A stretch of 2,378 bases of DNA from a virus (lineage: Duplodnaviria; Heunggongvirae; Uroviricota; Caudoviricetes), in the IMG/VR virus record IMGVR_UViG_2548876939_000010; one strand, 5' to 3'. Below, in pieces: positions 1-1,984 of this stretch. Numbering within the stretch: position 1 is the stretch's first letter; every line of letters starts with the position of its first letter. The notes under the pieces are model-generated. The model worked only from the letters and a program-made list of their open reading frames with translations, had not been told where the DNA came from and made no database searches. The position numbers and the translations under genes were made by a program.

Positions 1-231
1 TCAGGAGTGATTTTCATTGTTCAACCGCCCCGCCCGCTTCGTCTTACGATATTCATCATAAACTTTGGGATCATACTGAAGCTCCCCGCCAGATGCCTCC
101 TGTAGACGCATCGCGCGACCTTCGGGAACTAAATCCCCTTTCCAGCTATAAAGCGAAGCCAAACGAATACCTGCTGCTTGTGCAAGTTTTGTTTTTGAAC
201 CGAAATACAAAAGAGCGTCAGTTTTAAGCAT
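1..231 (-). CDS. dicC: DicC, small Cro-like regulator (76 aa) of the prophage division-control switch
   Basis: Complete minus-strand ORF: ATG is the complement of 229-231, stop TGA is the complement of 1-3. The translation MLKTDALLYFGSKTKLAQAAGIRLASLYSWKGDL... matches E. coli DicC as I recall it. A Shine-Dalgarno AAGGTG (complement of 238-243) lies 6 nt upstream of the ATG. It is divergent from dicA, as in lambdoid immunity regions. Confidence 0.9.
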   Translation of the reverse strand: MLKTDALLYFGSKTKLAQAAGIRLASLYSWKGDLVPEGRAMRLQEASGGELQYDPKVYDEYRKTKRAGRLNNENHS

Positions 232-1422: not shown

Positions 1423-1701
1423 TAGCTAACCAACGAAGCTAAGGTTGGTAATTAAGGAGTTCTCCACGGATGAGGTGGAGTGCGTGCGCCGGACACGGGT
1501 GAGCATCCGGCACTGACAGTTTACTGAAAGGATATTTCCCTGAAAAGTCAGACCATAACGCGAAAGCGCACGGCGAGGTAGCTGGTTCATAGATAGCCTG
1601 TCGTTAAATTTTCGTCGACCGTGCGCTTCCGGTTGTGGCAATCCGCGAAATGGCGCGGCGGTAAGTATGGCGGGGTTATTCCTTCCCCCGTTGAGGACAC
1701 C

Positions 1702-1738
1702 GGGTTGTCAGGTTGACCATACGCTTAAGTGACAACCC
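1702..1738 (+). other. Strong RNA stem-loop (9-bp perfect inverted repeat GGGTTGTCA / TGACAACCC, 19-nt loop) about 25 nt upstream of the DicF 5' end
   Basis: Seen directly: 1702-1710 is the exact reverse complement of 1730-1738. It lies in the untranslated ydfC-dicF spacer, which is expected to be part of the DicF precursor. Confidence 0.5.
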
Positions 1739-1763
1739 CGCTGCAACGCCCTCTGTTATCAAT

Positions 1764-1816
1764 ATTCTGGTGACATTTGGCGGTATCAGTTTTACTCCGT
1801 GACTGCTCTGCCGCCC
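1764..1816 (+). ncRNA. dicF: DicF small regulatory RNA (about 53 nt; antisense inhibitor of ftsZ translation)
   Basis: The sequence ATTCTGGTGACATTTGGCGGTATCAGTTTTACTCCGTGACTGCTCTGCCGCCC followed by a TTTTTT run is near-identical to DicF RNA as I recall it, with at most a couple of substitutions. It lies between ydfC and dicB, as in the K-12 operon. The ends are defined by processing and termination, so the boundaries are approximate to a few nt. Confidence 0.85.
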
Positions 1817-1827: not shown

Positions 1828-1984
1828 TGAATTTTGTGATGCGGTGAATGCGGCTCAGCGCACGCGGAACAGTTAAATCGGTAAAGCGGTCATTTGCTGA
1901 GTAACGAGAATGCTCTGTATCCGGCGTTAATTGTTAACTGGTTAACGTCACCTGGAGGCACCAGGCACCGCATCACAAAATTCA
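1828..1984 (+). repeat. Long-range 19-bp perfect inverted repeat (arms 1828-1846 and 1966-1984) bracketing the dicF-dicB spacer; candidate RNase III-type duplex
   Basis: Seen directly: TGAATTTTGTGATGCGGTG (1828-1846) is the exact reverse complement of CACCGCATCACAAAATTCA (1966-1984). In RNA it extends to 21 bp with a G-U and an A-U pair (1826-1827 with 1985-1986). The upstream arm starts 6 nt after the DicF T-run; the downstream arm ends 5 nt before the dicB Shine-Dalgarno. Confidence 0.6.

Follow-up and report, generated by a model that had tools for sequence, protein, structure and literature searches.

A predicted pseudoknotted RNA domain in the processing leader upstream of DicF is shared by Qin-type prophages, lambdoid phages and P1/P7

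The window analyzed here is a 2,378-nt stretch of DNA from a member of Caudoviricetes (IMG/VR record IMGVR_UViG_2548876939_000010). By open reading frame (ORF) assignments, an Rfam scan and comparison to RefSeq, it holds the immunity and early-left region of a Qin-type prophage. Our subject is the spacer at 1423–1763, between ydfC and the small RNA (sRNA) DicF. The spacer is non-coding and serves the prophage early-left (dicBF) transcript as a structured processing leader. Comparison among phages indicates that its last third is a discrete conserved RNA domain of 116 nt (1632–1747), which we call the core and which is predicted to fold as a four-way junction with a pseudoknot. The two known cuts that generate the DicF species, at about 1628 and at 1764/1765, bracket the core, and the core constitutes the 5' two-thirds of the species known as long DicF. 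Our best guess, offered tentatively, is that the core acts in cis as a 5' domain, adjusting both the stability of long DicF and its maturation.

The fold of the core was derived by side-by-side reading and alignment of its copies, and all of its pairs were verified in the window, on the plus strand. The closing helix, P0, pairs 1632–1639 with 1740–1747. Within it are the P1 arm (1643–1647/1654–1658), P2a (1660–1662/1699–1701), P2 (1671–1675/1686–1690) and the P3 arm (1702–1712/1724–1738). The pseudoknot is formed by 6 bp between GUAUGG at 1665–1670 and CCAUAC at 1717–1722 in the loop of P3. The P2 loop (1676–1685) is pyrimidine-rich and, as in every variant, resembles an anti-Shine–Dalgarno sequence (UCCUU here). 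The minimum free energy (MFE) fold of 1630–1750 by itself gives all of the core helices except the pseudoknot. Directly contiguous with the 8-bp P0 is a long-range helix, H4 (1561–1573/1619–1631), in which 12 of the 13 positions pair. H4 encloses a variable hairpin and a conserved single-stranded motif, GUCGUUAAAUUU (1600–1611).

The comparative evidence makes the predicted structure convincing. In a MAFFT alignment of 25 variants, 93.3% of the cells pair, versus 34–54% when the partners are slid, and there are 7 compensatory pairs versus at most 3 in the slid controls. In an alignment of 60 distinct sequences based on our covariance model of the core, R1, 95.7% of the cells pair versus 35–55% when slid, with 11 compensatory pairs versus at most 4, and the observed values were reached in none of 500 shuffles. 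The latter alignment leans towards the modelled helices, but P2a and the pseudoknot are outside the model and still pair in 100% and 99% of cells, respectively. Each of these two has one compensatory pair, U-A to C-G in both cases: that of P2a is in P7-type copies and that of the pseudoknot is in P1-type copies. The support for the pseudoknot thus comes from few evolutionary events. Compensatory changes fall in six of the seven core helices and also in H4, where RNAalifold on 21 diverse alleles gave 12 pairs, 3 of them compensatory. The P2 stem is swapped outright among variants (CUGGG/CCCAG, CCAGGUG/CACCUGG or CUGGGG/CUCCAG), yet its loop retains a YCCU/CUCC motif (CUCCUU, UCCUCC, CUCC or GUCCU in other alleles). 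Model R1 scores 80–165 bits for every complete core copy, including those of P1 and P7, and 58 bits for a partial copy at a contig end. When viral sequence was scanned again without constraining the pseudoknot bases, the same loci came back and no new pseudoknot variants appeared.

Two observations concern the P2 arm itself. The P2 loop can pair with an adjoining purine stretch in the window, in loci L044, L032 and L291 and in P7; this pairing is impossible in P1 and in L127/L128. A P7-like core copy in L022 (4659–4818) has an insertion of about 24 nt, G-rich with a run of 11 G, that lengthens P2 and is either a true expansion of a variable arm or an assembly artefact.

From this one sequence, the structural signal is modest. 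Exact inverted repeats of 6 bp or more number 8 in the spacer, versus 3.4 ± 1.9 in shuffles (P about 0.03), 5% of shuffles contain a stem of 9 bp or longer, and the folding z-scores are −2.8 (1423–1816), −1.6 (1423–1629) and −1.0 (1630–1750). The case for structure therefore rests on the comparison with other loci. A sequence-only reading of the spacer had listed four hairpins (1462–1467/1475–1480, 1488–1493/1506–1511, 1643–1647/1654–1658 and the 9-bp stem 1702–1710/1730–1738). All four are exact, and its phrase "highly structured" is right for the whole spacer, H1–H4 (H1–H3 are described below) plus the core; its list is without P0, P2, P2a, the pseudoknot, H3 and the long-range helix H4. As to conservation of these stems, those at 1643–1658 and 1702–1738 lie in the covarying multi-helix domain, and those at 1462–1480 and 1488–1511 are conserved without compensatory pairs and give way to different hairpins in other alleles. 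The Rfam search that it had suggested as a check found DicF alone above threshold and nothing over 1423–1763.

The weak single-sequence statistics (core z-score of −1.0; 9-bp stems in 5% of shuffles) are also what would be expected if the hairpins were chance inverted repeats or the minus strand encoded a protein. The minus strand of the spacer is stop-free over 97–111 codons in some alleles, and "hypothetical proteins" are annotated on it over the core in the cdtI, F1055, pPE4 and 2H10 records. We give this explanation almost no credence. It is contradicted by the compensatory changes in the core and H4, by the G.U pairs of the core, which are valid on the plus strand only, and by the agreement of the helix boundaries predicted here with processing sites that were mapped by experiment. 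A minus-strand gene in particular is ruled out by an inconsistent frame among homologues. Alleles with 340-nt and 341-nt spacers, in a ratio of 18:13 among unique homologues, differ by one C inside a hairpin, and the P2 segment ranges over 25–31 nt among variants, so there is no shared minus-strand reading frame. On the plus strand, the longest ORF of the spacer is at most 31 amino acids, and the RefSeq record of one K-12-type strain has no features annotated over the spacer. That the spacer is untranslated, as first proposed from the sequence, is thus borne out.

The processing of the transcript provides support for the fold that is independent of the alignments. An earlier report of both DicF species by Faubladier et al. 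in 1990 was reportedly confirmed by Ragunathan et al. in 2023. The two species in K-12 are 190 nt and 53 nt long, and both accumulate in stationary phase (PMC10448788). The 5' end of the 190-nt species requires RNase III, and this species accumulates on RNase E inactivation; the 53-nt species requires RNase E (PMC10448788). The mapping primer of Ragunathan et al. 2023 is complementary to 1712–1733 of the window, and the K-12 sequence in their Fig. S1B includes the entire core (PMC10448788). In the window, the DicF family (RF00039, a 52-nt covariance model) matches 1765–1816 on the plus strand at 77 bits, versus a gathering score of 48, and the 53-nt form with its intrinsic terminator is 1765–1817. 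The 190-nt form accordingly starts at about 1628 (1817 − 190 + 1), which places its end in the 3' arm of H4, 4 nt ahead of P0. An extended double-stranded helix, as expected of an RNase III processing site, is present at that end, and we infer that H4 is the RNase III substrate. The RNase E-dependent end at 1764/1765 follows an AU-rich linker of 17 nt, GCCCUCUGUUAUCAAUA (1748–1764, plus strand); its position is from the Rfam placement and its RNase E dependence from the literature. Linker positions 1754–1761 can pair with the DicF seed at 1768–1775 (8 of 8), and the cut site is then in a 6-nt loop. Since both cuts coincide with helix boundaries and the RNase III cut is in a covarying helix, they support the fold independently. 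The sequence-only reading had envisaged a single cut by RNase E; the literature supports that enzyme for the 53-nt DicF, and the second cut, by RNase III, was unanticipated. Its broader claim, that the spacer is a structured untranslated part of the DicF precursor, is supported.

The blocks of the spacer differ in their distribution by BLAST, which makes it a mosaic. As a whole, it matches one E. coli chromosome at 100% identity and K-12-derived strains at 97.4%. The core recurs at 77–99% identity in four settings: many E. coli prophages, lambdoid phages (cdtI, 2H10, mEp460, HannyBb, Evi, Tritos and the Stx2c phages), a Salmonella phage, and P1/P7. Among 5426 complete E. coli genomes, 4312 (about 79%) have it, at 8964 places and up to 8 per genome, and no annotated feature lies over it among the E. 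coli matches listed. It is also on about 500 plasmids of Escherichia, Salmonella, Klebsiella and Shigella, mostly non-mobilizable and of ~95 kb (P1-like). A search of genome contigs with a 15-base pattern gave nearly all chance matches, the only real one being in E. albertii. The phage vB_Apl-pPE4 (L009), whose recorded host is Actinobacillus pleuropneumoniae, has an E. coli-type region with dicA, a core at 85% identity, a DicF-like sRNA, kil and exodeoxyribonuclease VIII. Either that host assignment is doubtful or the transfer was recent.

The core is optional. In a survey of 126 DicF loci, anchored on a conserved block downstream of DicF, it is missing at about 40%. The arrangement of the remaining parts identifies H4, P0 and the linker as a general processing scaffold, with the core as an optional insert in the P0 loop. 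This bears on the earlier idea that the four listed hairpins direct the cut that makes the DicF 5' end, which is not supported in that form. Two of them (H1 and H2) lie over 115 nt upstream of the site where RNase III cuts, and the other two sit in the domain that is precisely absent from many DicF loci keeping H4, P0 and the linker.

Our favored reading of the core as a maturation and stability domain is framed accordingly: on this reading, the core does not define the cuts and is accessory to a downstream terminator-type sRNA. H4 stacked on P0 would present double-stranded RNA for RNase III. The compact core would expose the linker alone, fixing the position of the RNase E cut. The new 5' end left by RNase III, about 4 nt from P0, would be a poor substrate for 5'-end-dependent RNase E, and the 190-nt form might therefore persist as a reservoir that slowly releases active 53-nt DicF. 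Several points weigh against this reading. The RNase III position of about 1628 is derived from a gel size (190 nt) and not from a mapped base. The 53-nt DicF is active when expressed alone (PMC5069750). Most core-less alleles in the survey keep H4, with P0 closed by a loop of 4–5 nt (GUUGU-GAAUA-ACAAC, or GUUGUGGC-AAUCA-GCUACAAC), and since many loci keep H4, P0 and the linker without the core, the core is not needed for processing. Finally, the core is near-invariant in sequence between lambdoid phages and P1/P7, unpaired nucleotides included, while the downstream sRNA is completely different. This argues for a sequence-specific role, as a passive structural block would not need such invariance. 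The invariant loops and the pseudoknot suggest that the core may also bind a specific partner.

The surroundings of the core bring in a different kind of explanation. The operon that carries the core is always an early one under repressor control, with the core on its sense strand. In P1/P7, the first core hairpin begins ~35 nt past the Pban start; in cdtI and 2H10, the core is in a gene-free leader after cI; in the Stx2c phages, it is in a non-coding leader after cI; and in Qin-type loci, it follows ydfABC-like ORFs ~800 nt from the promoter. No more than 100 nt past the core there is an intrinsic-terminator hairpin in each of the contexts examined, and beyond the terminator are dicB/kil, exonuclease, xis and int, or the P1 tRNAs, tciA and ban. 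The size of the unit recurs as well, at ~185 nt from the Pban start to the terminator in P1 and ~175 nt from P0 to the terminator in cdtI. The viable phages mEp460 and HannyBb have the order repressor, small ORFs, core, DicF, dicB, exonuclease, xis, int. No N gene is annotated in the core-bearing phages examined, and their small early ORFs match no PHROGs N family.

By analogy with HK022 put or Bacillus EAR, the core could be a cis-acting processive antiterminator: the nascent domain would bind RNA polymerase and provide read-through of the DicF-type terminator and later ones in phages that lack N, to the benefit of dicB/kil, exo, xis and int, or of the P1 tRNAs and ban. Among the rivals we give this one the most weight, although we think it unlikely. 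For HK022 put RNA, the point of comparison, suppression of pausing and termination depends on binding to the beta-prime zinc-binding domain. Like put, the core is placed downstream of an early promoter of an N-less phage and upstream of terminators, always between the repressor-controlled promoter and the first intrinsic terminator of the operon, and a complex fold with invariant unpaired bases is what a binding surface might look like. The three N-encoding loci examined (POCJ13, phiSTEC1589 and L330) are all without an intact core. However, a tblastn search with three N queries matched only 2 of 83 assessable loci, and on inspection of their ORFs, many of the loci without a core turned out to lack N as well. 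The anticorrelation with N is therefore not clean and does not separate the hypotheses; the association of the core with absence of N is only suggestive. Similarity to put was sought and not seen, with no R1 matches in the HK022 loci L004 and L005 at E ≤ 1 and a pairwise score of 21 versus 19 ± 4 for shuffled sequence. HK022 carries both putL and putR, whereas the core is optional and single in cdtI, where the best candidate for a second, divergent copy in the full genome scored 14.8 bits inside an annotated minus-strand ORF and was judged to be noise. The distance of ~800 nt from the promoter and the three intervening genes in Qin-type loci also fit poorly, and some read-through of the DicF terminator occurs naturally, giving a transcript of 1,608 nt. 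It is accordingly doubtful, though conceivable by the same analogy, that the core adds a third class to the RNA-only processive antiterminators, next to HK022 put and Bacillus EAR, used by N-less lambdoid phages, Qin-type prophages and P1/P7.

The two cuts could also be taken as the means of releasing the core as an RNA in its own right. In that case, it would be a trans-acting RNA, either a ~137-nt fragment (1628–1764) or the body of an RNA of ~185–190 nt, which would bind a host or phage protein or pair through the anti-Shine–Dalgarno-like P2 loop, with a logic like that of P1 c4 and P4 CI. The sequence-only reading had offered a further processed RNA, so far unannotated, as its alternative, and it is in this form that the alternative survives. 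The cuts bracket the core as required, in stationary phase there is a stable, abundant 190-nt species, and the core is portable, with varied 5' flanks and 3' sRNAs, optional, and present in up to 8 copies per genome. The P2 loop keeps its motif while the stem changes, and a 9-mer beside P2, GUUGAGGAC (1690–1698), is identical to the dicB ribosome-binding region at 1987–1995. Pairing does not bear this out: the core with the dicB start gives −15.6 kcal/mol, no better than shuffled targets (mean −19.9), and the P2 loop with a Shine–Dalgarno sequence gives only −5.2 kcal/mol. The free fragment is putative, and a promoter of the core's own was looked for and not found. The Rfam models for C4 and isrK give matches elsewhere in the cdtI locus but none to the core. 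We regard an independent RNA as an unlikely explanation as well.

A sensor like a riboswitch, whose folded state would decide whether the DicF terminator forms and so set the DicF:dicB ratio, is quite improbable. A pseudoknotted four-way junction whose junction bases are invariant is a typical aptamer feature, a terminator always follows the core, and the MFE structure of the 190-nt RNA (−70.6 kcal/mol, z = −2.8) pairs invariant core bases GGCGGUA with the 3' strand of the terminator. In P1/P7, this pairing is impossible (the terminator there is GCCCAUC/GGUGGGC) even though the same core bases are invariant, so the alternative pairing of the window is not conserved, unlike the mutually exclusive antiterminator/terminator pairing, overlapping the aptamer, of transcriptional riboswitches. 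Moreover, P0 ends 30–60 nt before the terminator stem, leaving no overlap of the kind that known expression platforms show. The strand that would compete lies 120 nt further off than the terminator's own 5' strand, and the core is optional. Against all of these readings, including the maturation and stability domain that we favor, there is a small but real chance that the truth is something outside those considered.

Around the spacer, the window is laid out as dicC (1–231, minus strand), dicA (315–722), ydfA (889–1044), ydfB (1046–1174), ydfC (1204–1422), the spacer, DicF, and dicB (2002–2190) followed by the start of ydfD. The upstream half of the spacer begins with hairpin H1 (1462–1480, plus strand), an exact CUCCAC/GUGGAG stem with a 7-nt loop; among alleles, the stem is kept and the loop varies (GGAUGAG, GGGUGAG, GGGUCAG or GGGUUAG). 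H2 (1488–1511, plus strand), an exact GCCGGA/UCCGGC stem with a 12-nt loop, is the most widely shared upstream piece and is found at 86–90% identity in Stx phages, inside early-left operons. Compensatory changes in H1 and H2 were looked for among the alleles and none were seen, the changes being confined to the loops and to G.U-compatible stem positions. H3 (1513–1551, plus strand) is a long imperfect hairpin from the MFE structure, with a verified outer stem CUGAC/GUCAG. In other alleles, H1 and H3 are replaced by unrelated hairpins or an H-type pseudoknot, the position of H3 being taken by either a hairpin, CCCUG/CAGGG, or a module with an H-type pseudoknot. Conserved RNA modules (H1, H2, H3, H4, then P0 with the core) follow one another along the leader and are swapped between prophages.

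The H-type pseudoknot is apparent in L269, L279, L017 and related loci, at the equivalent of 1513–1552. It comes in two versions, ACCACC..CCCGG..GGUGGU..CCGGG and ACCAC..GCCUG..GUGGU..CAGGC, which differ in both stems. Natural alleles in L013, L319 and L020 are deletions between short repeats within the leader and show how the modules get reshuffled. One deletion is between CACGG(A/G)UGAG motifs in the H1 and H2 loops and another is between ACGCGAAAGCGC (1558–1569) and CCGCGAAAUGGCGC in P1 of the core. A strong Shine–Dalgarno sequence, AAGGAG (1454–1459), is followed 10 nt on by a 10-codon ORF (ATG at 1470 to TGA at 1502) that overlaps H1 and H2. It is probably not a gene, because in other alleles its start codon is GTG or missing.

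Just past the DicF terminator is a long-range duplex of 20 bp, 1827–1846/1966–1985, with 19 Watson–Crick pairs and one G.U. The reported 72-nt DicF would have its 3' end at 1836 (1765 + 71), mid-way in this duplex, which is therefore very likely an RNase III site in read-through transcripts. The same part of the window (1830–1979) has a sub-threshold match to STnc100, at 33.6 bits versus 47. Similar sub-threshold matches (28–43 bits) occur in P1 (L006, 2842–2961), P7 (L007, 2910–3025), L009, L011 and L267, just upstream of the first protein gene after the terminator, which is tciA/terB in P1/P7 and kil/dicB in lambdoid phages. Their recurrence points to core, terminator and STnc100-like structure as a recurring leader layout. 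P7 also has an unannotated tRNA-Sec-like match downstream of two annotated tRNAs (L007, 2713–2797; 46.6 bits versus 47). In cdtI, on the minus strand near a putative antirepressor (L003, 40–228), Rfam C4 (68.4 bits) is beside isrK (60 bits), which is a P1-type c4/ant immunity module in a lambdoid phage.

Few bacterial small RNAs have been known for longer than DicF, and few genomes have been studied as closely as those of P1 and E. coli K-12, yet the 137 nt that account for most of long DicF have been treated as spacer. Most of that length appears to be a discrete, covarying, pseudoknotted domain. This offers a structural explanation for where RNase III and RNase E cut, and it bears on the timing of DicF release, on the restraint of dicB/kil toxicity, and on how N-less lambdoid phages and the P1 ban operon pass a terminator right after the early promoter. 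If the core were indeed an antiterminator, it would carry RNA polymerase into kil/dicB and the recombination and integration genes, or into the P1 ban operon.

It is already known that the spacer is a processed DicF precursor. The long DicF intermediate of the K-12 dicBF transcript is from the same locus and is the same RNA as the 3' part of the spacer plus DicF. Its extra 137 nt is treated as precursor sequence in the published account, in which the term "secondary structure" has no occurrences, and long DicF is described there without a fold, a pseudoknot, conservation outside Qin or an optional core (PMC10448788). In Rfam 15 and the searchable literature (excluding Faubladier 1990/1994, Lobocka 2004 and King 2011), we found no description of the fold, the pseudoknot, the covariation, the optionality, the presence in P1/P7 and N-less phages or the bracketing by the cuts. 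In a permissive scan (E ≤ 1) that covered the window and seven related loci, no Rfam 15 family matches 1423–1763 or the core in the cdtI, P1, P7, F1055 and pPE4 loci. With respect to transfer RNA (tRNA), the arms of the core are too long (P3 is 11 bp and the domain 116 nt), and in the window, ARAGORN finds no tRNA or transfer-messenger RNA genes and the Rfam tRNA model no matches.

The P1 record AF234172 has a misc_feature, "dicF-like region" (68791–68892), that covers the 3' half of the P1 core and the terminator, so homology between P1 and Qin was already noticed when P1 was annotated. The feature starts mid-P3 and is named after DicF, but the part shared by P1 and Qin is the core and not the DicF sRNA. 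P1 and P7 carry c4 as well as the core. The c4 RNAs and the P4 CI RNA are likewise compact, cloverleaf-like phage RNAs. These antisense RNAs are excised from an operon leader under repressor control and are transcribed together with the genes that they regulate. They differ from the core in that complementary target sites for it were looked for and none were found, and neither C4 (RF01695) nor isrK (RF01394) matches it at E ≤ 1.

HK022 putL/putR resemble the core in belonging to the early left operon of an N-less lambdoid phage, upstream of the first terminators, and in being multi-helix structures, in put with unpaired bases that are essential (PMC9378689). The put RNA is two stem-loops of ~70 nt with a triplex, whereas the core is four helices and a pseudoknot in 116 nt, and the core can be far from its promoter. 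The EAR element (eps-associated RNA) of Bacillales is a pseudoknotted intergenic RNA within an operon, and it promotes read-through at distal terminators. No family of Rfam 15 other than DicF and the sub-threshold STnc100 matched the window, and this covers EAR if that release includes it. Its phylogenetic range is other than that of the core, and the likeness between the two would be a functional one only.

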